Below, piece after piece: positions 3,106 to 53,766 of a DNA stretch of 56,418 nt (position 1 is the stretch's first letter; each line of letters opens with the position of its first letter). Source of the DNA: a virus (taxonomy: Duplodnaviria > Caudoviricetes); IMG/VR virus record IMGVR_UViG_3300048872_000176, positions 1 through 56,418 of that record. The stretch is one strand, 5' to 3'. Under the pieces are notes generated by a model. That model was not told the origin of the DNA and ran no database searches. It saw nothing but the letters and a program-made list of their open reading frames with translations. Position numbers and translations under genes: made by a program.

Positions 3106-3891
3106 ATGAAGTGTTCACACTGTGACAAGGAATTTGAACCCACATTGGGTCAGCTATACTGTTCTGGAGATTGTCGCCTTCGTGCAAGAAAATCACGGAA
3201 GCGAAACAAAAATACAAAGTTGTTCACATGTGAACAATGTGGACGTGAATTCTGGCGAAGTCCGGATAAAGGGCACGCTTATCGTTTTTGTTCGTTGCAG
3301 TGTTCAGGAGCGCATCTTCGTAAACCTGATCCCGAACCTTTAAGAAAACTTTGCGTGGGATGTGGCAAAGAGTTTTTTACGCCTTACCCCAACAAAAAAT
3401 ATTGTTCACCAAACTGTTCCTTAGATCGAACGTGCCACTATTGTTTGGATAGTTTTAAAGTCGCACCTAATGAACGATTGAAGGATAGGAAATGGTGTTC
3501 TTTGAAATGTTGGCAGCAATCTAAAAATCCGTCTGGTGTAGGAAGTCAAGTTTATATGTTGAAGACCGGACCTTACATCAAGCTGGGTTTTACAAGTCAA
3601 CCTTCTTTAGAGCATCGTCTCCACCAAATCCGGAACGCTTCGCCTTATCATATTGAGGTGCTTGCAGCCCGGCCAGGCACGTACGAGCAGGAGCAGGAAC
3701 TTCACCGCGGAGCGAAGCAGTGGAAACATCGCGGCGACTGGTACGAGGATTGTGCTGATCTCCGATTTTACGTTGACCGATTCTTCTTCTCAGAAGTAGG
3801 GGACCCTATAGAGGTTCCTGAGTCGGGGCGTACGGGCGGGTCCCCAAGTTTGTCGGTGAGTGAACAGGAAGCTTTGAATGAAACCAACTAA
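3106..3891 (+). CDS. Zinc-ribbon repeat protein with T5orf172/GIY-YIG-type nuclease domain
   Basis: Multiple CxxC..F...YCS..C repeats, then VYMLKTGPYIKLGFT...RL..I...SP...EQELH...GDWY. Confidence 0.8.
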   Translation: MKCSHCDKEFEPTLGQLYCSGDCRLRARKSRKRNKNTKLFTCEQCGREFWRSPDKGHAYRFCSLQCSGAHLRKPDPEPLRKLCVGCGKEFFTPYPNKKYCSPNCSLDRTCHYCLDSFKVAPNERLKDRKWCSLKCWQQSKNPSGVGSQVYMLKTGPYIKLGFTSQPSLEHRLHQIRNASPYHIEVLAARPGTYEQEQELHRGAKQWKHRGDWYEDCADLRFYVDRFFFSEVGDPIEVPESGRTGGSPSLSVSEQEALNETN

Positions 3892-4817: not shown

Positions 4818-5057
4818 ATGGCAACCGCACAAGGCCCGGCTTCGGGTAATGCAGTTTTGTTTTTGGGTAATCCTCCGACCGCTTCGGTCGAAGTTCAAGT
4901 TCCGAACGGCCTCCCCAGCTTGGAGCCTTCCCGCGCTCCATATGTTGATCCAAGCGCGAATGCCTTCAACGTGAACTCCGTCCCGCTCACAGCAATCAAC
5001 ACTACTTTCGTTTTCGGAAACACGGGCGCGACGATTAGGTTTAGTAATCCTGCATGA
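4818..5057 (+). CDS. Putative virion accessory protein, C-terminal NPA family
   Basis: 79 aa ending GATIRFSNPA*. Confidence 0.7.
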   Translation: MATAQGPASGNAVLFLGNPPTASVEVQVPNGLPSLEPSRAPYVDPSANAFNVNSVPLTAINTTFVFGNTGATIRFSNPA

Positions 5058-5740
5058 TTCCTGAAGTCGCTCACATTTATGGTTTGTTCGATCCGCGGAT
5101 TTCAGACGTAATCTGGTACGTCGGCAAGACAAACAATGCCCGAACTCGACTGCAATACTATCGCAAGGACGACAGTACTACTCCAGTTTACAGATGGTTT
5201 CGTCGTTTACAATCCGAGGGTTCAGAGCCTCAACTCCACATCCTTGAGACTTGTCCGTTTAGTGAATGGCAAGAACGTGAGCGGGCACTAATAAATCTGC
5301 ATCGTAAAAAGAATCTCCTTCTATTGAACGTCTTTGACGGTGGAAACGGGACCGCGGTTAAAGGCCGCAAAGAGTTTTGTGAGTGCGGGGAGAAACGCAT
5401 TATTCTCTATCCCAGTGACGGAACGCTTCGATGTCCGGTTTGTAGAAAAGCTCAGCGCAAGGCATACGAGAAGAAGTGGGTTATCGAGAATGCGTCAGAG
5501 TACAAACAACAGCGTGCAGCGTATTACCTAGCCAACCAAGATCGAATCAAAAAAGCAGTGGGTGATAATAAAAGAAAACAGATTGAAAGTGGCTTGTGCG
5601 CACAAATAGGTTGTAAAACTGTTCCCACACACTACAAGAAAAAATGTCGTTTTCATTTAGACATGGATTCCGAACGAATGAGATTTCGTCGGAAAGATGT
5701 AACTCAAACTAATTCTAATCACGAGACGGGCCTCTACTAG
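5054..5740 (+). CDS. Free-standing GIY-YIG homing endonuclease
   Basis: IYGL.DPR...YVGKT...R...E.ER..I...LLN...GG, followed by Zn-ribbon and basic DNA-binding region. Confidence 0.85.
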   Translation: MIPEVAHIYGLFDPRISDVIWYVGKTNNARTRLQYYRKDDSTTPVYRWFRRLQSEGSEPQLHILETCPFSEWQERERALINLHRKKNLLLLNVFDGGNGTAVKGRKEFCECGEKRIILYPSDGTLRCPVCRKAQRKAYEKKWVIENASEYKQQRAAYYLANQDRIKKAVGDNKRKQIESGLCAQIGCKTVPTHYKKKCRFHLDMDSERMRFRRKDVTQTNSNHETGLY

Positions 5741-9070: not shown

Positions 9071-9146
9071 GGCCGGGTAGCTCAATAGGCAGAGCAGTCG
9101 ATCTGTAATCGACATGTTGGAGGTTCGATTCCTCTCTTGGCCTCCA
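9071..9146 (+). tRNA. tRNA, anticodon TGT (Thr), atypical
   Basis: Cloverleaf: ggccggg/cttggcc acceptor, gctc/gagc D stem, gtcga/tcgac anticodon stem with loop tcTGTaa, ggagg-ttcgatt-cctct T arm, encoded CCA. Confidence 0.85.
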
Positions 9147-16141: not shown

Positions 16142-17986
16142 ATGGCTCCTTTCGATTTCGAGAAACTCTACAACGATGCTCGCATTGCGGTGGAACGCTC
16201 GGGGTCGGAAGAGGGCTGGAAGAAATACGACTATACTGATCCTAAAGTATGGGAAAAGGATTTCCGCAACGGGCAGACCGATCTTTACTGGTTGTCCACG
16301 GAACTTCTGAATCTCGCTTTAGTTGAAAGTACGCACCGCCCTATTACAGATGATTTTTTCATCAAGAAGAACCCGTATAAAGAAGCTAAGTCTTATAAAG
16401 AGTGTATCGGTAAACAAAGCACGGTGAAGAACCGCCTCTTGCTTTACCCTCGCGGCACATTCAAATCCAGCATAGACATGGCTGATGTAATCCAGTGGAT
16501 TGTGTGTTTCCCGAACATCCGCGTGATTTACATGACCGCGGAAGAAACTCTCGCTACGGATTTCGTACGTCAAACAAAGTCGTATTTTCAGATTCCTGAA
16601 TCTACAACGATGACGAAGTTTCAGATGTTATATTTCTCGCACTGTATTCCTGCTAAGAAAAAAGAAGCTGAGAATCAGTTTTTAAGTCCCGCTCGTACTG
16701 AGCAACAAGCCCAGCCAACTCTGTTGTCTCTTTCTCTTGGTATGAGCACGGCGGGTAAACACTCAGACGTTGCTAAGTTCGACGATTGCGTCTCCAACAC
16801 AAATTCAGGCCCCCGTGCTAATGCGGAGCAGCGTAAAAAAGTTACGGATGAAATTAAGCTGGCTCGTCCTCTGGTTGATCTTTATGGGTTTCGGGATTTT
16901 ATTGGGACCCCTTATGACCCTGCGGACGCTTATGCGTCGATTCAAGAATCAATGGCTGGACCAGACCTTAAAGTTTTAACCGCTCCTGCATGGACTGTAA
17001 AACCAGGGGCTCGGAAAAAATCAATCGAGCAGTTGAATGAAGATGACGTTGAACTTCTATTTCCTATAGATGGGCAAGGTGTTGAGCGTCTCACATTCAA
17101 AGCCTTGATGTCGGAATACCGCAGTGACAGTTTTATTTTTTCATGTCAGTACATGATTAATCCGGCCTTGACCAGAATGGTTAAGTTTACGGAGTATATG
17201 CTTCGGAAGTTGATTGTCGCGCCGGAAGATTTTCCCCAACCCGGAAGTTTTTTTACAGCGCAAGCATGGGATTTTGCGGTTACAGACGGCAGCAGTAGTG
17301 ATCGTTCTTTTGGAGCTAACGGTCAGTTTGTGACTCAAGGCCCGCTCGCCGGGCGCTTGTATGTGACCGATGTGGTCCGCGGACGTTTTGGGAAGTCTGA
17401 ACTTCCTTTTCAAGTCGCGAACTTAGCGAACCGTTGGAAGCCGCTGGAGAAGTTAGGAATTGAAAAATCACCAGGTGCGGATTTTTTAGAGAATGATATT
17501 ACCCGAGCGATGATTAAAGTTGGTTACAGTGATTGTCCGCCGATTGAATGGATTCCTGTTGATAACCAAAAAGGTGCGAAGAACGCCCGTGCTGAGGGTC
17601 TCGAAACTCTTTATCTCGAAGGCCGGATTCTCTTTTCATCCGCAATTCCAGAAGATGTGATGGATGAAGTTATAAAAGAACATTTGAAATTCAAAGCAGG
17701 TTCAAACCGTAAAGATGATTCTTTGGATGGTCTCGCACATCTCACACGCTATATTCCAAAAAATATTGTGATTCCACAAACTGAACAGGAAAAACAAACC
17801 GCTGCTTGGGATTTGTTAAAACAAAAACAACAGCACGAACGAATGTTTCCTCCGAACGAAGATAAGCAAACACCGACTTGGAAGCGCGATGGTTACGACC
17901 GTCAAGAACCAATCGCTGCTCCTCTCACACATTGGGAAGGGATGCCGATTTTAAGGCACTCCGAAGAACCTTACTACGGAACATAA
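16142..17986 (+). CDS. terL: Terminase large subunit
   Basis: Walker A-like PRGTFKSS, Walker B GKHSDVAKFDD, IGTPY coupling motif, nuclease AWDFA, GIEK and KDDSLD. Confidence 0.9.
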   Translation: MAPFDFEKLYNDARIAVERSGSEEGWKKYDYTDPKVWEKDFRNGQTDLYWLSTELLNLALVESTHRPITDDFFIKKNPYKEAKSYKECIGKQSTVKNRLLLYPRGTFKSSIDMADVIQWIVCFPNIRVIYMTAEETLATDFVRQTKSYFQIPESTTMTKFQMLYFSHCIPAKKKEAENQFLSPARTEQQAQPTLLSLSLGMSTAGKHSDVAKFDDCVSNTNSGPRANAEQRKKVTDEIKLARPLVDLYGFRDFIGTPYDPADAYASIQESMAGPDLKVLTAPAWTVKPGARKKSIEQLNEDDVELLFPIDGQGVERLTFKALMSEYRSDSFIFSCQYMINPALTRMVKFTEYMLRKLIVAPEDFPQPGSFFTAQAWDFAVTDGSSSDRSFGANGQFVTQGPLAGRLYVTDVVRGRFGKSELPFQVANLANRWKPLEKLGIEKSPGADFLENDITRAMIKVGYSDCPPIEWIPVDNQKGAKNARAEGLETLYLEGRILFSSAIPEDVMDEVIKEHLKFKAGSNRKDDSLDGLAHLTRYIPKNIVIPQTEQEKQTAAWDLLKQKQQHERMFPPNEDKQTPTWKRDGYDRQEPIAAPLTHWEGMPILRHSEEPYYGT

Positions 17987-19596: not shown

Positions 19597-21720
19597 ATGC
19601 GCATAACTCCCGATCAGGCCAACCCGCAGGGACAAATTGATATCAAGGATTTCCACAGTCCTGCGGAAGTAGAAAATTCAGGTGCTTTACAATTGTGTGT
19701 ACAGGACGCTGCGAACACGGAAGCCTGGTTGCAAACAAACTATTGGTCTCTACGGTGGCGGGAAGCTGACGGTCTTTATCAAAGTCCTCCTGGTATTCTC
19801 ATGTGGGAGGGTACTACGGTTCCACGGGCGAACGTAAATCGTTTTGTTGTGGCCGAAACAGTAAATGCAATTCATCCTCAAATCATGAATGGGTTGTTTT
19901 ATGAAAACCCACCGTTCGTTCTGCGTCCGCGCCCGAATCTCCAACAGAACACCAGCCGGGCGATTTCCTCAACTATCGCGATAGAACTTGACCAAATGAA
20001 CTTTCGACAGGAAGTTGATTGGGGTTTGTTCTCTGCGCTGAACTTCGGCACATCTATTTGGAAGTGGGGGTTCAAAAGCAGCATTAAGAAAACCATTAAG
20101 TACGAACCGCTCGCAAACGCCGTCACGATTAATTCATCCATTCCCGATACGCCGCCCGCGGTGCTCGACACTCCCGAGTCCATGACTTATAAAAAAGTCA
20201 CAGGCACTGAAGAAGTTCATACACCGACATTCGAGTATAAAGATATCCGCTACATTCTTGTTGATCCGGGCCTCAAGGTTCCAGACATCCGTAAAGCTAA
20301 GTTCGTGATTGACCGGATGTATCTTTCTTACAAAGACTTGGAGAAACTTGCGGACGAAGAGTACGTAGAGGAAGACCCGAAGACTGGTAAGCAGACGCTG
20401 AAAAAGCGTTACATGTTGCCTAGCAAAGATGAAATCAAGGAATGGTTTGCCCCTCCGAAGGAGAACCCTGCGACGGGGCCTCAGAGCGAAGCGAACGTGG
20501 TTCAAGGCACCTCCTTCGTTCATCATGCTAAAGCGGTTTTCCAAAAGTCCACGGAAGACCCACTGGATGAACCGCTGGAAGTTCTTGAACGCTGGGATAA
20601 CGATAAAGTCATCACGGTTTTGAACCGCGTAAAGTGTATTCGTAACGAACCGAATGAATTTGGGGCCAACCCCTTCCTGTCTCTCAATTGGTGGAATATC
20701 CCAGACGCTTTCTGGGGTCTCGGCCTTGGCCGAGTTATTGGTGTTGAGCAACGGGTTCAAGCAGGAATTATCAACGCCTGTCTCGATCTCGCCAGCCTTA
20801 TCGTAAATCCAATGTTCGTAAGGTTGCGCGGCGCGAATATTCAAGAGCAACAGATTCGTCAACGTATTGGTGGAATCATTGCTGTAGACGGCCCTGATGC
20901 ACAAAAAGCCATCAGTATGATGGAACAGCCGCATATCCCTGCGGAAGTCGTCCAGCAAATCGCTCTGTCTCAATCTCGCGTGGAGATGACTTCTGGCGCG
21001 AACCAGCAATTAACCATGGGCGCTTCCACTCAAAAAGGTGGAGCGATGCGCACGGGTACAGGTGCTGCGGGTGTTATTCAAGCCACAATGAATCGTATTG
21101 GCGGGTTCGCTGAAACATTCGTCCGCCAGGTCTACGAACCCTTTATCTATATTGTTCACCAACTGAACAAAGATAAGATGCCAATCAGTTATATCAAAAA
21201 ACTGTTAGGCGAACGTGAAGGCCCGAGCTTTAAGTTCGATGCTGCGAATTACCTAAATGGTCCTGCGGAATTTGAAGTTCTTGCCGGGTCACATCTCGCC
21301 GCGAAGTCTCAAATGGCGCAGTCCCTCTTCATGATGATGCAGATGTTTGAATCTCAGCCGATGATGGACCAGTTGAACAAGATTTCGAACAAGAAAGTAA
21401 ACATCGAAGAATTGTTCCACATGATTCATGACATCTCGGGTTGGAAGAACTACTACGATATCATTCAAGACATGACGCCCGAGGAAATTCAGAATCAGCA
21501 AGCGAACTCTCCTGCGGCCCAAATACAAATGAAGGTAGCGGCCCAGCAGAATTCTCAGAAAACTCAGTTCGATCAGAAGACCGCGATCATCGATCAAGAA
21601 AATGAAGCCCGTGCCGCACGCGACGTGTTCCGTATCATCGCGGAGAAATCCGCCGAGCCTGAAGCTCTGCTTGGTGCGACGGCCCCAACCCAAGGACTTG
21701 GTAGCAATACCACAGCATAA
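19597..21720 (+). CDS. Portal protein (P22/N4-like)
   Basis: 707 aa after TerL; FGTSIWKWG, ILVDP, PF...W...P.AFWGLG.G, R.TGTGA, Q-rich C-terminal barrel. Confidence 0.85.
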   Translation: MRITPDQANPQGQIDIKDFHSPAEVENSGALQLCVQDAANTEAWLQTNYWSLRWREADGLYQSPPGILMWEGTTVPRANVNRFVVAETVNAIHPQIMNGLFYENPPFVLRPRPNLQQNTSRAISSTIAIELDQMNFRQEVDWGLFSALNFGTSIWKWGFKSSIKKTIKYEPLANAVTINSSIPDTPPAVLDTPESMTYKKVTGTEEVHTPTFEYKDIRYILVDPGLKVPDIRKAKFVIDRMYLSYKDLEKLADEEYVEEDPKTGKQTLKKRYMLPSKDEIKEWFAPPKENPATGPQSEANVVQGTSFVHHAKAVFQKSTEDPLDEPLEVLERWDNDKVITVLNRVKCIRNEPNEFGANPFLSLNWWNIPDAFWGLGLGRVIGVEQRVQAGIINACLDLASLIVNPMFVRLRGANIQEQQIRQRIGGIIAVDGPDAQKAISMMEQPHIPAEVVQQIALSQSRVEMTSGANQQLTMGASTQKGGAMRTGTGAAGVIQATMNRIGGFAETFVRQVYEPFIYIVHQLNKDKMPISYIKKLLGEREGPSFKFDAANYLNGPAEFEVLAGSHLAAKSQMAQSLFMMMQMFESQPMMDQLNKISNKKVNIEELFHMIHDISGWKNYYDIIQDMTPEEIQNQQANSPAAQIQMKVAAQQNSQKTQFDQKTAIIDQENEARAARDVFRIIAEKSAEPEALLGATAPTQGLGSNTTA

Positions 21721-23473: not shown

Positions 23474-24413
23474 ATGGCCGGATACAATCCAGCTAGCAAC
23501 AATACTTCCAACTTGCCTCAATCTCGCGTTATTTATTATGACAAACGCTTTATTGAAAACCTGAAAGCTCAGACCCCGTTCGTTCGTTGCGCAGAGCGGC
23601 GCGAATTGCCTCTGAATTCCGGTAATCAGTTGGAACTTTTCATGTACAATACATTCGGTGCAAACACCTCTCAGGTGTCCGAAGGTACTGTACCTTCCGG
23701 TATTTCGGCTTCGGTCGGAACTACCACAGCGACGATTGGTGAATATGCCGATTACGCTAACTTTTCTTCACTGTCTTTGGCAACCGCCATCGATCCAGTC
23801 GTAGAGAACGTTGGCCGCGAACTTTCGTATCGCCTTGGACAATCTTTGTCCGCAATTACCCGTGCGGTTGCTGACGGCGCGAACAGCGTTGACAGTTCCG
23901 TTGCGGTTTCGATTGCTGGTGGTACGTCTCTCGCTCTTTCTAACGTTCGTTCCGCCGTTCAGTCTCTGGCTGGCCGAGCGGTTCAACCCTTCAACGAAGC
24001 CGAAGCTCTGATGGCTGGAGTAATCCATCCGTTTAGCGTTGGCGATCTGTTGAACGATTCTTCCAACAACTCCGCAATCGACGTTCTCAAGCACACCGTG
24101 CCTGGCCTCCAGCGCATGGATGACCTAGTTTCTATCGACCTGGCCGACACGCTTGAGTTCCCGGCTTCCGGTGTCGCTTTCTTCCAGTCCAACCTCGTCA
24201 CGCTGACAACGGCGTATCAGGGTTCGGCTGCGGGGGTGGTGGCTTACAGAACTTACATTTTCGGAAAAGACGGGGTAATTGCCATTAGGTTGGGTGGCAG
24301 AGGAGATAATGCTATCGAGGATGGTAATTGGCGAAATATTGAATGTAACATCGTTCAAAACGCCCCACTCTCGGTTGCGGACCCTTCTGGTTTGATTCCT
24401 GGATGGACCTCCT
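23474..24413 (+). CDS. Major capsid protein (N4-gp56-like), exon 1
   Basis: YYDKRF..NLK, LP.NSG, T..IGEYADY, AIDPVV, IHP....DL; frame stops at a group I 5' splice site. Confidence 0.85.
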
Positions 24414-25253
24414 AAATCATAATAAAATTATGGGACGTACCGATGAAAGTCGGAATACGTTAATCTTCTCTGATTGACTTGAAAGCTGTGAAGCCAACAA
24501 GGGGCAAGCCGAAAGGCAGCCTGAGAGACTAAGTGAGAAGACGGCCAAAGTGCCGAAGCGATAGTCCGATCTTATGGGAATAAAGAACCATAAGGTGGTT
24601 GAACAAATTCTCAACCCATGAGATAATATAAACATGAAAGCATATGCAGAAGAAATAAAACAAGAAGCACTAAGACTTTTACGTGAAAATCGCGGCCCGA
24701 AAGATATTGCTAAAAGATTGAATATTTCAATCGGTGCAGTTGAGGATTGGGCAAACGATTGGCGTAAAGACGGCTCTCTTAAAAGTTATAAGAGACCAGG
24801 CATGGAGTTTACAAACCGAGCGAAAGAGATTTCGAACGGTTACTACAAGAGTATTCGCAAACGCTATTTAAGTATGAAGTGGATAGACCATTTAGCGAAG
24901 CGCGAATGTGGGTTCAAAAGCCCAGTGGAAGCGATTCCATACTATCTTGATGAAAATAAAACTCCAAGAGTTTGTGCGTATTGTGGACGACAACCCTCAG
25001 ATGGAAAAGTTTGGGGATTAGATCGCCTCGATTCTTCTTTAGGCCACGTACCGGGGAACTTAGTTCCTTGCTGTGGCTTTCACAAAGAAGGAATGCAACT
25101 TTCATGTCAAGCTAGTAAGTCGAAGTACTCTCTATTTTCTTGGATGGAAATGAATATTTCTCGGTATTATGGGAGACCAGCTTCCACTCTCGAAGTAGAA
25201 GGACGTATTCGATTGGTTCAAGAACTAGCGAAAAAATTATCTCAAACACATTG
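24414..25253 (+). mobile_element. Group I self-splicing intron (840 nt) in the major capsid gene
   Basis: P1 tcct/ggga with U-G at splice site; P10 ttat/ataa; P3 tcttctc/gagaaga; P7 gacta/tagtc; P8; P9; terminal G 25253; splicing restores the frame. Confidence 0.9.
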
Positions 25254-25254
25254 A
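24634..25254 (+). CDS. Intron-encoded HNH homing endonuclease with N-terminal HTH
   Basis: CAYCG...GLDRLDSSLGH..GNLVPCC...C..SK; N-terminal DIAKRLNIS.GAV..W. Confidence 0.85.
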   Translation: MKAYAEEIKQEALRLLRENRGPKDIAKRLNISIGAVEDWANDWRKDGSLKSYKRPGMEFTNRAKEISNGYYKSIRKRYLSMKWIDHLAKRECGFKSPVEAIPYYLDENKTPRVCAYCGRQPSDGKVWGLDRLDSSLGHVPGNLVPCCGFHKEGMQLSCQASKSKYSLFSWMEMNISRYYGRPASTLEVEGRIRLVQELAKKLSQTH

Positions 25255-25336
25255 TAAGGTCCATTACACTGCATCGCTTCCGCCTGATACTACCATGCGT
25301 CTCCGGTACATCAACGCGACCAGCGCCATCAGTTAA
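25254..25336 (+). CDS. Major capsid protein, exon 2
   Basis: T|AT AAG GTC... gives GWTS-YKVHYTASLPPDTTMRLRYINATSAIS*, 340 aa in total. Confidence 0.85.
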
Positions 25337-25350
25337 ACAATCTACCCTGG

Positions 25351-25494
25351 TTCCAGGTTATAAACGGACGAATGCCGTTCTTGAGAAACGGATACTGCCC
25401 CGTGGAATTCGGGGCGCAAAATTGTCCAGACTTTCTAGAATATCTGGACGCGACGATGGGGTGATTTTCTAGAGTCACCCCTGACATCGTTTTA
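25351..25494 (+). other. Multi-hairpin intergenic element; last hairpin may be a terminator
   Basis: gccccg/cggggc, gtccaga/tctggac, acgatg..ggggtga/tcacccc..catcgt followed by tttta. Confidence 0.55.
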
Positions 25495-25791
25495 ATTCAA
25501 ATATTTTTTTATGTTTTCAACAATCCAGGGCATTCGTTCGATGTTTCCGAGGATGGCGTTACACCAAAAACAAAGTAGTCCTCGGAATCTTTTTGTGCGG
25601 GGTTTGTGATCTGAAACAAGAATCATTCGGCGGGAGCAAATCTTACATCTCCCCTGCTGGTCTTTTTCAGCGATTAAATATCGCTTTAACCCAATCTGTC
25701 CGTATTTTTGCTCTATCCGATGGAGATATTTATCCCTTTCTAGGGCGAACAAAGCAGGTTCGTCCTGCCATTTTAAGAAAAAGTATTTCAT
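25492..25791 (-). CDS. Endonuclease VII-like HNH protein (antisense insert)
   Basis: KYG...Q.GRCKIC...DH...FRGLLC..CN..LG. Confidence 0.8.
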   Translation of the reverse strand: MKYFFLKWQDEPALFALERDKYLHRIEQKYGQIGLKRYLIAEKDQQGRCKICSRRMILVSDHKPRTKRFRGLLCFWCNAILGNIERMPWIVENIKKYLN

Positions 25792-34500: not shown

Positions 34501-35746
34501 CACTGCGTATAACCCAGGTCAGTTTTGGACTTTTACTTCCCCAGTAACCCGACTGGTGCCGACTACGGTAGGGCTGCTGGTTTGGACTACTTCCGATCTT
34601 GGAATTATTCAAGGCGGGCCGCAAATCACGACGCTGTTCAATAATATTTATGTGCCCGGCCTCGGGCTCACTTCTTTCAACGCACTAACCGTAAATGGTG
34701 GGCTCATTGATTTGTTCACTGCGGATAGTCAAGTAGTACGATTCGATCCCAACATGGGTGTGTCGAAAATCGGTGTGCCTATTGGAGACCAGTTTTTTAA
34801 ATACGGCGCACAGACTACGACTTTTTCGCCAGCAACTGCTTATGTTACTTTCCACACCCAGGGTTTAAACGATGAGGCTTTATTTGTAGCGGATGGTTCA
34901 ACAGGCTGGTTTCGTGGTGTACCAAACCTCGCTCCGGACGCTGCGATCTCTGGTCCTGTGTGGAGTCCGAAAGCCACGGTTGTTGGCGGCTGTAAAGCTA
35001 TTCAATCCCTTGAAGTTCAACCTGGCCAACACGCTTTGCTGATCGGAGCTACGTCCGCGAATCATCCGGTGCTCGTGCGAGATTCGACGTACACCACCTT
35101 CACGGACAATTCTTCAGCTTATGCCGCGAATTTTATTTTCGGTTCTATGGTGTTGGCGAATCCAGGGCAGCTTGCGGAACTCGGTTTTATCACATGTGAA
35201 TTCATTAAAACAGGAACCTCCCCAATCTTGTCTGTCATGCTGGATGAACTCGCGGACTCCGTGATGGTAATTTCCGCGGCACTGAAGAGTGGAAACAACG
35301 TCATTTACACTTATACTCTGACCACTGGTTATGCTGTAGTACCTGGTTCGGGTGTGACAATCACAGGAATGGCGGATGCTGCGAACAACGGAACCTTTAC
35401 TGTTACTGCGGTCGGAGCGGGAACCTTCACCGTTGTGAACGCCGCGGGTGTGACTCGTGCGGTTCAAACCGGAGCGGGAACTTTATTCGAAAGTTTGTCC
35501 GGGTATGTTTCCGCCGTCACTAGTTTGCCACCGCAGGATGCACCAACCGTTTATGGTTTGCAGTTCACTCCTGCGAGTACATACGCGAACCGTTATTACT
35601 TCGCACAAAGTGTGAATGGAGTTGTTCCTCCACAAGGCGTGGATTGCCGTCACATGCAAGTGAAACTGGATTTCGGCTCAAGCGATATCATTCAAAACGA
35701 GCTTTTAACAATGAGTATTTTCGGGAAACATTGGCAGGAAGTCTAG
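31544..35746 (+). CDS. Tail nozzle / packaged-DNA stabilisation protein with multiple inserted domains
   Basis: 1400 aa after the adaptors; N.E.....TICRRPG, GRIF...S, propeller-like C-terminal half; repeated W...DG.V.W and beta-barrel inserts. Confidence 0.7.
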   Translation: MANALQAVGSHGDHDSGWAPIFTNRFFLGLWTNRNPLRAPTGVIYENYYRLGGTDALIGGNNVEISNRLTICRRPGNTAGLTNFVSSSNIPDIPDSFYSFHEIGGTIRVFADTPTAPYLIGGYTNGAGTASQGIIPIFTKGAGVVQSFFQGIGQSLYFSDTAEQEKWLDFGSGNPGNSFSVITATSLTSNVATITAINNFAIGQTVVISQTTNNAGTFNTTGIITAANSSQFQFALVHANISPASDTGFANACWNLGIIAPTIAPTLNIVASGAAAVAWQASTYFSTMGLVVDGNNNVQELISVNNTGTNTTPFGTSGDGQPQWSATPGATTSDNTVTWTNWGPIVLWTAHTTYSNHRTGGDLTNPAYVYDPVSDTIWGNDSAGGASGISGAAKPAFAKSKKFIADGSVNSWINVSGVGIAANQGTIFFWQPNHLYSPSFSSTNRNYNAAIIEPIALPAPSNQVIFFQVATTGGTSGGSGTPPFQNLGAATQTYDNDLIWLNLGSATWVALTNYTAWTGTQPVFSVIQDTNGNMQVCVVSGQSGATQAHQQWQANHAYSNTNTIVDTNGRLQTVTSAGTSGAVKTLTTSDITSGVATYTTSTNHGYAVGQQVTVVTSSHDSAFNVTNAIITSLPTAAKFTINLAHDDIVSAADTGTSYAGPTWAPSGTTTDGGVTWTAGSTTTGWGVNYGDTTLDGTAKWVCVGPPMAWAASTLYHLPPPGFEPPSPSQPFGGSEVISTGFVQATIRSGKSAASLPTFSNTIGNFTIDNPGASEIIWTNAAAFSQNSISWTKGYGYVYAYKARGTFDQYAPLPLGGGLNPQGSGLGTNPAWSAGSGGLTPTGSADGSVSTASPSVQMAVGINSGSVVNISGLGSTDPQVDTVSIFRTFDGGATFFWLTDIKNPQSIGGIAQPWTFQDFLPDIATDLFLGLNTLVLAPINHSNDPPLAGMINLTQYFGRIFYSVGATVYCSQGPNVGGPSQPPGNGYTAYNPGQFWTFTSPVTRLVPTTVGLLVWTTSDLGIIQGGPQITTLFNNIYVPGLGLTSFNALTVNGGLIDLFTADSQVVRFDPNMGVSKIGVPIGDQFFKYGAQTTTFSPATAYVTFHTQGLNDEALFVADGSTGWFRGVPNLAPDAAISGPVWSPKATVVGGCKAIQSLEVQPGQHALLIGATSANHPVLVRDSTYTTFTDNSSAYAANFIFGSMVLANPGQLAELGFITCEFIKTGTSPILSVMLDELADSVMVISAALKSGNNVIYTYTLTTGYAVVPGSGVTITGMADAANNGTFTVTAVGAGTFTVVNAAGVTRAVQTGAGTLFESLSGYVSAVTSLPPQDAPTVYGLQFTPASTYANRYYFAQSVNGVVPPQGVDCRHMQVKLDFGSSDIIQNELLTMSIFGKHWQEV

Positions 35747-52261: not shown

Positions 52262-52945
52262 TTGATGCTCGTAATTGAACCCAGCTTCGAAATCCTGACT
52301 CCTTTCGGTTCACTAAATGAACAAGGTGGTATTCAGTTACTTCAGTTTATTGAGAAAATGGCTCGTATTTCACACCGTTCGGAAGACAAACAAACGGACG
52401 ACTCTTGGCAACGGTTCATAAAAGCAGTAGTGCTCGAACACGGTGATTGGTCGGTGGTAGAGCACGCATCTCTCACCGTAATTTTCAGAGTTGACCGCGG
52501 CGTCACGCACGAATTAGTCCGCCATCGTCTCTTTAGTTTCACTCAGGAATCCACAAGGTTTGTGAATTATGCAAAGAAAGCTGATTTGGAATTCATTATC
52601 CCAGCCGAACTCAAGGATGGGGAAAGTGTCACGTCTTCAAAATTTTTGTGGTCGAACGCTATCGGAGAGTCCGAACGCACGTATCTTGATTTGTTGCGCA
52701 ACGGAGTCCGTCCGCAAGAGGCTCGAAGCGTACTTCCTAACGCATTGGCCGCAACTATCGCCGTCACAGGTAACTTACGAAACTGGAGGCACATTCTCTT
52801 AATGCGCTCTTCTAAGGAAACGCATCCGGATTTTCGCCGGGTGGTTGACCCGCTGTTGAAGGTTTTTCAAACGAACATACCTTTACTTTTCGATGACATC
52901 GAAGCCGGACAACGCCAAATCGAAAATCTTAGGAAGCCGAGATGA
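52262..52945 (+). CDS. thyX: FAD-dependent thymidylate synthase
   Basis: SVVEH, RHR-x7-S (RHRLFSFTQES), ARSVLPN, N.RNW. Confidence 0.93.
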   Translation: MMLVIEPSFEILTPFGSLNEQGGIQLLQFIEKMARISHRSEDKQTDDSWQRFIKAVVLEHGDWSVVEHASLTVIFRVDRGVTHELVRHRLFSFTQESTRFVNYAKKADLEFIIPAELKDGESVTSSKFLWSNAIGESERTYLDLLRNGVRPQEARSVLPNALAATIAVTGNLRNWRHILLMRSSKETHPDFRRVVDPLLKVFQTNIPLLFDDIEAGQRQIENLRKPR

Positions 52946-53766
52946 AATCTCCTCAACAGAAATGGAATAGTGCCCATCCCGAAGCGATGGCTACTAATTC
53001 TAAAATATGGCGGCAACGGCACCCTGAGAAGGTTGTTGTTCAAAATCGGAAAAAAGATCGCCGTTTTCGAAAATATGGAATTGCAGCATCGGAATTTTAT
53101 GCTGCGTTGATTCGTCAACACTATAAATGTTTGGGCTGTCTGTGCGAGATAAACGAAAAAACCGCCAATATCGATCACAAACATGATGGGTCTAATCCTT
53201 TCCGTGGATTACTGTGTCGAAACTGCAACTGGGCTCTTGGAATGGTTTACGAAAACTCCAGTACGCTACGACGACTCATGGCTTATTTAGACTACGACCG
53301 TAAAAAAACCCACGTATATTTGATCGGCGCTCTAAAAAACAAACGAGTTCCTGAAATTGGAAATCACATTCGAGCAGAAGGTTTTGATGTTATGGACGAA
53401 TGGTTTACGCCGGGAGAGTTTGCTGACACCAATTGGCAGGAATATGAGAAACAACGCGGACGTACCTATTCAGAAGCGTTGCGGGGCCGCGCTGCAACGA
53501 ACATTTTTCTTTTTGACCAATCATACCTAGACCTTTCCGATATAGTTATTTTGGTGGCCCCCGCAGGCAAATCTGCGATGATCGAACTTGGGTATGCCAA
53601 GGGTCGAGGAAAGAAAACCTGCATTTTGTTAGATGGGATCGACCCTGACCGTTACGACATCATGCCAAATTTTGCAGATGAGATTTTTATGACTGAAGAC
53701 GCTTTGATTAAGCATTTAAAAGAGTTGACAAATACTGGAGTCTATGGTATAATCCCAATCACATGA
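52942..53766 (+). CDS. Fusion of endonuclease VII-like domain and nucleoside deoxyribosyltransferase-like domain
   Basis: KYGI..C..C..IDH.H..RGLLC..CN, then VYLIG...SD.V.LV.PAGKSAMIELGYA. Confidence 0.8.
   Translation: MKSPQQKWNSAHPEAMATNSKIWRQRHPEKVVVQNRKKDRRFRKYGIAASEFYAALIRQHYKCLGCLCEINEKTANIDHKHDGSNPFRGLLCRNCNWALGMVYENSSTLRRLMAYLDYDRKKTHVYLIGALKNKRVPEIGNHIRAEGFDVMDEWFTPGEFADTNWQEYEKQRGRTYSEALRGRAATNIFLFDQSYLDLSDIVILVAPAGKSAMIELGYAKGRGKKTCILLDGIDPDRYDIMPNFADEIFMTEDALIKHLKELTNTGVYGIIPIT
53725..53753 (+). promoter_or_regulatory. Consensus sigma70 promoter
   Basis: TTGACA-17-TATAAT with TG extension; ATG 9 nt downstream. Confidence 0.8.

Follow-up and report, generated by a model that had tools for sequence, protein, structure and literature searches.

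A Tunturi-3-like soil phage with a probable group I intron in its major capsid gene and, within the intron, a probable nuclease gene whose stop lies across the 3′ splice site

The contig IMGVR_UViG_3300048872_000176 is a phage genome fragment of 56,418 bases, examined as the complete record and called the window below (all coordinates are its own), in which the major capsid gene is interrupted by an insert of 840 nucleotides (nt) that we predict to be a group I intron carrying a nuclease gene. The capsid open reading frame (ORF; 23474-24415) encodes 313 amino acids (aa), ends in ...GLIPGWTS and matches the PHROG major head protein family phrog_1357 (E 3.5e-17), with no family match in Pfam. 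The features at the locus are:

23474..24413 (+), capsid exon 1, comprising codons 1-313 and base 1 of the Tyr314 codon (ORF, phrog_1357, tblastn of the homologue P0001)
24413..24415 (+), TAA terminating the capsid frame over the 5′ splice site (sequence)
24414..25253 (+), predicted group I-type intron, 840 nt, starting AAAUC... and ending ...CAUUG (tblastn, covariation, splice-site comparison)
24634..25254 (+), intron ORF of 206 aa, with an N-terminal helix-turn-helix and a Cys-rich, His-Me/endonuclease VII-like domain (ORF, Pfam, PHROGs, motif, fold model)
25254..25336 (+), capsid exon 2, the AT of Tyr314, 26 codons and TAA (tblastn; synonymous versus nonsynonymous differences)

The homologues of the capsid protein, which some sources name N4-gp56 family major capsid proteins, are mostly 338-344 aa long (best 120 of the 455 found), and eight full-length ones share the C-terminus ...GLIPGW(T/S)SY(R/K).H(Y/F)T...S, so that the ORF in the window ends 27 residues before its homologues do. 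The nearest relative from an isolate, the Tunturiibacter phage Tunturi_3 (63.6% identity), has an uninterrupted capsid gene of 1032 nt. In a tblastn search with the intronless homologue P0001, residues 1-313 fall on 23474-24412 and residues 315-340 on 25256-25333 (88% identity), a split also given by three more distant homologues; the missing 27 residues are thus encoded in phase at 25254-25336, beyond the insert. Since residues 313 and 315 of P0001 flank the insert, the Tyr314 codon is divided as T24413 and A25254-T25255, and the cut T/AT was chosen over TA/T because the latter makes the intron end in A and only the former gives an exon-terminal U together with an intron-terminal G. Six intronless alleles (L001, L002, L003, L005, L010 and Tunturi_3) are contiguous exactly across this point (...TGGAC.TC.T/A...). 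The initial annotation, made from the letters alone, had proposed that the capsid ORF stops short, that joining T24413 to A25254 restores the Tyr and adds 27 aa, and that the full-length protein depends on this joining in the RNA; the comparative evidence supports each of these proposals, and homologous capsids extend beyond GWTS rather than ending there.

Might the insertion instead stay in the message, leaving a truncated 313-aa capsid protein or a defective phage, with 25254-25336 as a decaying remnant? The ORF call taken alone gives just such a protein, and none of the sequencing runs listed as containing the stretch is recorded as RNA. Exon 2, though, keeps its phase and the homologous stop, and over its 27 codons the synonymous to nonsynonymous differences from intronless alleles are 16:3 (L001 and L002), 9:2 (L003) and 15:6 (L005), which indicates that it is kept under protein-level selection. 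Exon 2 is also retained in six other distinct copies of the nuclease-bearing insert (see below), and the homologues that were read out have the conserved C-terminus, save three shorter entries (P0096, P0008 and P0030); an unremoved insertion is accordingly very improbable. A 17,558-nt contig of run X1, possibly the source sample, covers 24091-25500 with 0 differences, and the arrangement of exon, core, ORF and exon recurs in contigs of several other samples; by these contigs, an assembly artefact is excluded. Contigs of runs X1, X2, X3 and X9 hold neither joined exons nor an intronless form, X1 having the intron-bearing one.

Other classes of interruption were weighed as well, namely an intein, a group II intron and ribosomal bypass of the T4 gene 60 type, as the length of the insert is a multiple of three and exon 2 lies in the genomic frame of exon 1. 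An intein is incompatible with the capsid frame meeting the TAA at 24413-24415 at once, with further stops beyond. Against a group II intron stand the absence of a reverse transcriptase ORF from the insert and of any Rfam group II match from the window or the intron stretches, the ORF encoding a helix-turn-helix and a nuclease instead. The bypass gap of T4 gene 60 is about 50 nt, and bypass could not restore the Tyr here because its codon is split between the first and second bases and 840 nt is far too long. We regard all three as excluded by the sequence, with a vanishingly small residual chance between them.

The insert can be drawn with the pairings of a group I core (shares of paired cells are from the alignment described below):

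24410..24435 (+), P1, exon U24410-C-C-U24413 with G24432-G-G-A24435, U24413.G24432 lying at the splice site (4 contiguous pairs)
24436..24459 (+), P2 hairpin with a GAAA loop (minimum-free-energy fold)
24464-24470 with 24535-24541 (+), P3 (fold; 96.6% of cells paired, compensatory changes)
24478-81 with 24498-501 (+), P4, within P3 (100% of cells paired, compensatory changes)
24485-86 with 24493-94 (+), P5, GUGA loop, within P3
24502-05 with 24519-22 and 24508-10 with 24515-17 (+), P6 and P6a, GAAA loop, within P3 (P6 99.4% of cells paired, compensatory changes)
24527-31 with 24562-66 (+), P7, GACUA with UAGUC, a pseudoknot with P3 (invariant in 84/84)
24542-45 with 24552-55 (+), P8, inside P7 (96-98% paired, compensatory changes in 4/4 pairs)
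24570-77 with 24589-96 (+), P9 (76% of cells paired, compensatory changes in 7/8 pairs)
24597-602 with 24611-16 (+), P9.1 (91% of cells paired, compensatory changes in 6/6 pairs)
24619..24627 (+), 5′ strand of P9.2, UGAGAUAAU (long-range duplex with 25236-25244)
25236..25244 (+), 3′ strand of P9.2, AUUAUCUCA, within the last ORF codons (duplex with 24619-24627)
25245..25253 (+), 3′ tail, AACACAUUG, its last base being the terminal G (matches the (G)UAACA-N4-5-G tail of ORF-less relatives)

Group I introns follow the helix scheme P3-P4-P5-P6, P7-P8, a P3/P7 pseudoknot and then P9, with which the order in the window agrees; their R/S-type consensus is GACUA...UAGUC, with a bulged A ahead of a G-C pair and a P7 that binds guanosine. 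The P7 region of the insert has the strands GAGAGACUAAG and GAUAGUCC, which resemble the classical R and S elements, and the terminal base, G25253, is the omega G. P1 is drawn as UCCU/A with UGGGA, the internal guide being 24428-24435. For P10, AUAA of exon 2 (25254-57) can pair with UUAU (24428-31) over 4 bp (1-5 bp in relatives), a helix that is short and weak alone; by eye, the same UUAU could alternatively pair with the AUAA of the intron itself at 24419-22, and pairing with either would permit the exchange that usually takes place from one splicing step to the next. Folding of the 5′ part of the intron (241 nt) is better than that of all 200 shuffles (z = -3.99).

The capsid genes of related IMG/VR contigs are interrupted at many places, and four of the inserts there share 75-80% identity with the core in the window. 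Scanning with a 16-base R-region motif gave at least 119 viral-contig stretches (123 pattern matches including that of the window), from which 84 distinct cores were aligned after dropping seven without a P3 motif, nine without an S motif within 45 nt, 22 duplicates and one at a contig edge. We refer to these as family A. The MAFFT alignment was built without structure fitting, and the structure derived from the window was then scored on it: the core pairs are formed in 92.1% of cells versus 34.0-44.0% with the partner column slid by 1-3, compensatory changes on both sides occur in 31 of the 43 core pairs, and the covariation score is 0.498 versus 0.067-0.090 for slid partners, a value reached by 0/500 shuffles. 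The P1 (with its U-G pair), P3, P7, P8, P9 and P10 that had been proposed from the letters alone can be drawn at 24414-25253, with core pairs far above chance in the family. These cores are widespread in viral contigs and, by the searches made here, escape the group I model of Rfam.

Among 66 upstream exon ORFs of family members that were scanned (17 others shorter than 40 aa were skipped), there are matches to the major head protein (5), ribonucleotide reductase (RNR; 3), the RtcB ligase (2), the large terminase (1) and nuclease ORFs (5), the remaining ones, mostly short, having no match; family A is not limited to capsid genes, because its cores also adjoin RNR, RtcB and large terminase exons. 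In the Roseobacter phage CRP-118, an unannotated family A-like core lies between two RNR fragments (OR420741.1 ~35056-35455; L351:1481-1880). That RNR is annotated as two coding sequences (gp44 and gp45) with ~400 nt between them, and the spacer is probably an unannotated group I intron, judging from its sequence. The pattern GGNTGGACNTCCTAAA was tried as a finder of further introns at the capsid site of the window and rejected: only six of its 114 stretches had a family A core, these being on contigs already known, and the others were chance matches.

Splice-site usage was compared in eight family A members that lie in capsid genes at six different codon sites. The exon-terminal base is U in 8/8 and the intron-terminal base is G in all seven with a visible 3′ end; the nuclease-bearing copies L146, L164, L302, L313 and L315 also end in G. 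Each intron's own guide pairs with its exon end at least as well as any foreign guide, with 5-10 contiguous pairs in the relatives. The guides thus differ with the site and the pairing is kept, which is the behavior expected of a working P1.

The 206-aa ORF inside the intron has an N-terminal HTH_23 domain in Pfam, and phrog_1035, ‘endonuclease VII’, is matched at the C-terminal part by all 33 of its aligned homologues. They share the motif CxYC...KVWGLDRxDSxxGHxxGNLVPCC, in which C114, C117, H138, N142, C146 and C147 are invariant or nearly so. The AlphaFold model (predicted local distance difference test score 87.4) has as the best match of its residues 58-179 PacI (3m7k_A; Z 6.4, root mean square deviation 3.7, 106 aligned residues), at a modest score; PacI is an HNH-type restriction enzyme. 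A phmmer search of PDB sequences gave nothing useful. The HNH label given by the initial annotation is upheld only loosely and in part, with the PHROG and PacI matches on one side and on the other Pfam, which recognizes the helix-turn-helix only; the fold model and motif point to a probable His-Me finger nuclease, with HNH itself not proven.

The ORF lies in the loop of P9.2, because ORF-less relatives have a small P9.2 hairpin at the same position, followed by the same (G)UAACA-N4-5-G tail. Around the ORF, UGAGAUAAU (24619-27) and AUUAUCUCA (25236-44) form a perfect 9-bp helix (-10.1 kcal/mol; 0/500 shuffles as good). The flanks in L146 and L164 are unlike those of the window in sequence and pair at the same place (-10.0 with 50/500 and -8.9 with 23/500 shuffles as good, respectively). 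The last codons of the ORF, AAA UUA UCU CAA ACA CAU UGA, extend over P9.2's 3′ strand as well as the tail. The TGA consists of T25252, G25253 (the last intron base) and A25254 (the first exon base), as had been noticed from the letters alone.

Six nt before the nuclease start codon ends a promoter-like site (24599-24627, +), with a -35 TTGAAC at 24599, a spacer of 17 nt and TG-n-GATAAT; it overlaps P9.1 and P9.2, its TG and GATAAT lying in the 5′ strand of P9.2. The region has seven promoter-like sites against 3.2 +/- 1.6 expected. Clearer TGnTATAAT boxes, of which the site in the window is a degenerate version, occur 6 nt before the start codon in only four of 16 distinct loci of nuclease homologues, and most free-standing copies are preceded by a plain Shine-Dalgarno sequence. 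Leaderless transcription of the nuclease gene from its own promoter is no more than a possibility.

Homologues of the nuclease were found at 36 loci in viral contigs and 61 in metagenome contigs, which we classified by a C-terminal motif. In 36/36 viral-contig loci, the gene is at the 3′ end of a capsid gene: seven are embedded as in the window, 26 are free-standing with the capsid stop 62-669 nt upstream and three are unclassified, and the metagenome contigs have six embedded, 43 free-standing and 12 unclassified copies. Free-standing genes just downstream of the capsid stop thus make up 69/97 of the loci, and they mostly terminate in TAA or TAG. With duplicates removed, seven distinct sequences have the embedded form (the window, the L144/L300 group, L149, L164, L302, L313 and L315), the nucleases of which are only ~50-57% identical to that of the window. 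All seven share the GWTS/Y insertion site, and in all seven the ORF ends ...ACA NNN UGA, with A being the first exon base. In L085, L034 and L112, a free-standing nuclease lies beside a capsid gene whose family A intron, 10-15 codons farther downstream, has no ORF. L133 has an intact capsid gene end, then a duplicated fragment of the capsid C-terminus with a family A intron and then the nuclease gene, an arrangement that, from its sequence, looks like the scar of a homing or recombination event.

Across the relatives, full-length inserts occupy about a dozen codon positions of the capsid gene. A second, unrelated family of introns, with LAGLIDADG ORFs (WSYLAGxxDGEG), is found in L007, L009, L011, L013, L014 and L015, where it cuts capsid genes at codons 57/58, 90/91, about 108, 185/186 and 215 and scores 21.5-28.1 bits with RF00028 against a gathering score of 50. 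There are also 22 distinct core-less micro-inserts at no fewer than seven codon sites of related capsid genes (gaps of 19-91 nt between high-scoring segment pairs, HSPs; e.g., L008:3010-3059, L015:3091-3136, L152:65-110, L143:927-994, and others in L302, L296, L332 and L326). Each follows an exon-terminal U, contains a G together with a sequence complementary to the end of the exon (a P1-like hairpin) and ends in G in the correct codon phase. Exon and guide covary (CCCGGAU/GUCCGGG versus CCUGGAU/GUCCAGG), and all are far too short for a ribozyme core. At codon 30, no capsid protein can arise unless the insert is taken out, because the frame meets UAA at once. Ribosomal bypass was rejected for the micro-inserts, as it cannot rebuild split Leu and Trp codons. 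Their sequences suggest that they may be deletion derivatives spliced by the core of a neighboring intron, or dead alleles, and those at site 313-316 could possibly provide a conserved alternative C-terminus. Their association with full-length introns has a raw Fisher p = 0.063, a figure unreliable either way because HSP-based counts miss introns beside very short last exons.

Taking these lines of sequence evidence together, we consider it very probable that 24414-25253, within the major capsid gene of this Tunturi-3-like soil phage, is a mobile group I intron competent for splicing. The pre-mRNA would self-splice by the guanosine-initiated two-step reaction, joining ...ACCUCCU to AUAAGGUC... 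to give a 340-aa capsid protein, and the UAA across the 5′ splice site (U/AA) would prevent ribosomes on exon 1 from entering the core. The ORF product is predicted to cut intronless capsid alleles and drive homing. We posit that its gene entered the intron from a free-standing position just downstream of the capsid gene, as occupied by most of its relatives, a course that agrees with collaborative homing. The ORF would have reached the splice site by ‘core creep’, the extension to the next available in-frame stop, and this stop would have become frozen because each of its three bases is fixed by either the intron end or the Tyr codon.

Several observations weigh against this reading. The phage is uncultured, and the lack of an RNA record among the runs containing it has been given above. 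The Rfam model Intron_gpI (RF00028) has no match in the whole window at the gathering score or in stretches of 266 and 1101 nt at E<=10, so that the check with this model proposed by the initial annotation gave no match, and it has none on the ORF-less relatives of family A at E<=1; a match to the model helps in detecting group I introns and does not define them. Weak Rothia-sucC and microRNA matches of Rfam in the intron stretches were judged to be chance. P1 of the window, with 4 contiguous pairs, is the weakest of the eight compared, and the guides of two other introns tie with its own; in the minimum-free-energy fold, the 3′ strand of P7 is taken up by exon bases 24405-08, a competing structure. 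For L146 and L164, the P9.2 duplex does not stand out strongly from shuffles, and shared ancestry of the embedded copies alone could account for the recurring stop position. As for the nuclease, Pfam finds no HNH domain in the ORF beyond its HTH_23, and Foldseek against the PDB returns the helix-turn-helix part only (E>=0.29).

The short P1 and the core missed by Rfam would also fit a group I-derived element that does not splice autonomously and needs a protein cofactor of the host or phage, or the core of another intron in trans, for joining; the 22 micro-inserts with P1-like hairpins, if removed at all, would likewise need outside catalysis. Every core helix is present in the window, though, with P7 invariant and compensatory changes elsewhere, so that nothing appears to be missing, nor does the 56-kb window contain, by nhmmer, a second family A core to serve as the helper. 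Assisted splicing is for these reasons quite improbable next to splicing by the intron's own core.

The overlap of stop and splice site could further be a selected switch, making nuclease output and capsid mRNA maturation mutually exclusive on each RNA molecule, a proposal from sequence that we hold to be rather unlikely. The UGA exists only while the terminal G is joined to A; the linear excised intron ends in ...UG and no longer contains it. Normal termination would therefore be confined to three RNA forms, the unspliced RNA, a transcript begun inside the intron (24599-24627) and a full-length intron circle, which would restore the UGA as the intron also begins with A. Were the switch real, ribosomes on the linear intron would run off its 3′ end, with the product tagged by transfer-messenger RNA and destroyed, and a ribosome ending on the 3′ splice site would unwind P9.2, cover the terminal G and block exon ligation. 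That ribosomes finishing the nuclease ORF modulate splicing, as the initial annotation had suggested, is unproven.

The window is otherwise rich in homing-type nucleases, as far as its predicted genes indicate. Directly downstream of capsid exon 2 is a 99-aa gene of the endonuclease VII type (PF02945, E 4.7e-11), and the remaining genes include a UvsX-like recombinase, a thymidylate synthase, a DNA polymerase fragment and several nucleases. Selected neighbors are:

3106-3891, HNH nuclease gene
5054-5740, homing endonuclease gene
9071-9143 (+), tRNA gene (60.4 bits), the sole Rfam family at the gathering score in the window
16142-17986, large terminase
19597-21720, portal-like protein
25492-25791 (-), the endonuclease VII-type gene
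52942-53766, endonuclease VII in fusion with a part resembling a nucleoside deoxyribosyltransferase

Group I introns in capsid genes are already documented, and the supplementary tables of the papers cited here may list more; the rarity in such genes implied by the initial annotation was overstated. RT-PCR together with N-terminal protein sequencing demonstrated the intron in the major capsid gene of mycobacteriophage LittleE (Pope et al. 2013, PMC3706429), in a paper that also cites one in the capsid gene of the lactococcal phage Tuc2009. Like the window, LittleE has a ~0.8-kb insert with an endonuclease ORF, U as the last base of exon 1, G as that of the intron and a junction defined by intronless relatives. 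It differs in having a LAGLIDADG-like ORF encoded on the other strand, an actinobacterial host and splicing shown at the bench, whereas the ORF in the window runs in the direction of the capsid gene, sits in L9.2 and terminates at the 3′ splice site, being known here from sequence alone. The crAss-like phages of the Delta and Zeta groups have group I introns in capsid genes, with one such gene in five fragments (Yutin et al. 2021, PMC7886860). They resemble the relatives of the window in having several inserts within the capsid genes of an uncultured phage clade; their introns were recognized via intron-typical protein domains, while the RNA core in the window was defined with covariation and its lineage is instead related to the Acidobacteriota phage Tunturi 3. 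In intron-dense jumbo gut phages, 37/76 predicted introns have metatranscriptome support, and the split genes named there are terL, nrdD and DNA polymerase, capsid not being among them (PMC12880540). A term search found the word ‘intron’ absent from the main text of the Tunturi phage paper (PMC11924767).

According to Edgell, Chalamcharla & Belfort 2011 (PMC3073962), bacterial group I introns usually have an in-frame stop shortly after their start, and the same article defines ‘core creep’ and describes the overlap of the T4 td intron with the I-TevI ORF. As in the window, the 3′ end of that ORF overlaps splicing elements, an in-frame stop follows the 5′ splice site and the start of nuclease translation is weak or structured. 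The overlaps in its Table 1 involve P6a/P7, P8, P1/P2 and similar elements; that table has no case like the ORF in the window, which passes through the 3′ strand of P9.2 and all of the 3′ tail and takes the first base of exon 2 for its stop. Collaborative (trans) homing pairs a free-standing endonuclease with an ORF-less intron at one site, e.g., in cyanophage psbA (summarized by Hausner et al. 2014, PMC3984707). The present nuclease family similarly occurs both free-standing beside a gene with ORF-less introns and embedded within an intron of this gene, the two predicted states; unlike in psbA, the host gene encodes a capsid protein and the embedded form lies 10-15 codons upstream of the ORF-less introns found beside free-standing copies. 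A literature search returned no account of an exon-completed stop codon or of an intron ORF that loses its stop, an absence that is unproven as few subscription journals were covered.

What is worth recording at this locus is an RNA family missed by the Rfam model, a stop codon whose last base comes from the exon and the occurrence of one nuclease family both free-standing and embedded. Annotation pipelines will call a truncated 313-aa capsid protein here and lose its C-terminus, and likewise in many relatives with one to several introns; the family A RNA could serve as a new search model. The locus offers a natural series bearing on how mobile introns originate, with the nuclease free-standing after the capsid gene or embedded in the P9.2 loop. 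For the phage itself, the sequence points to a further case in which the most abundant virion protein would rely on ribozyme activity, as already shown for LittleE.

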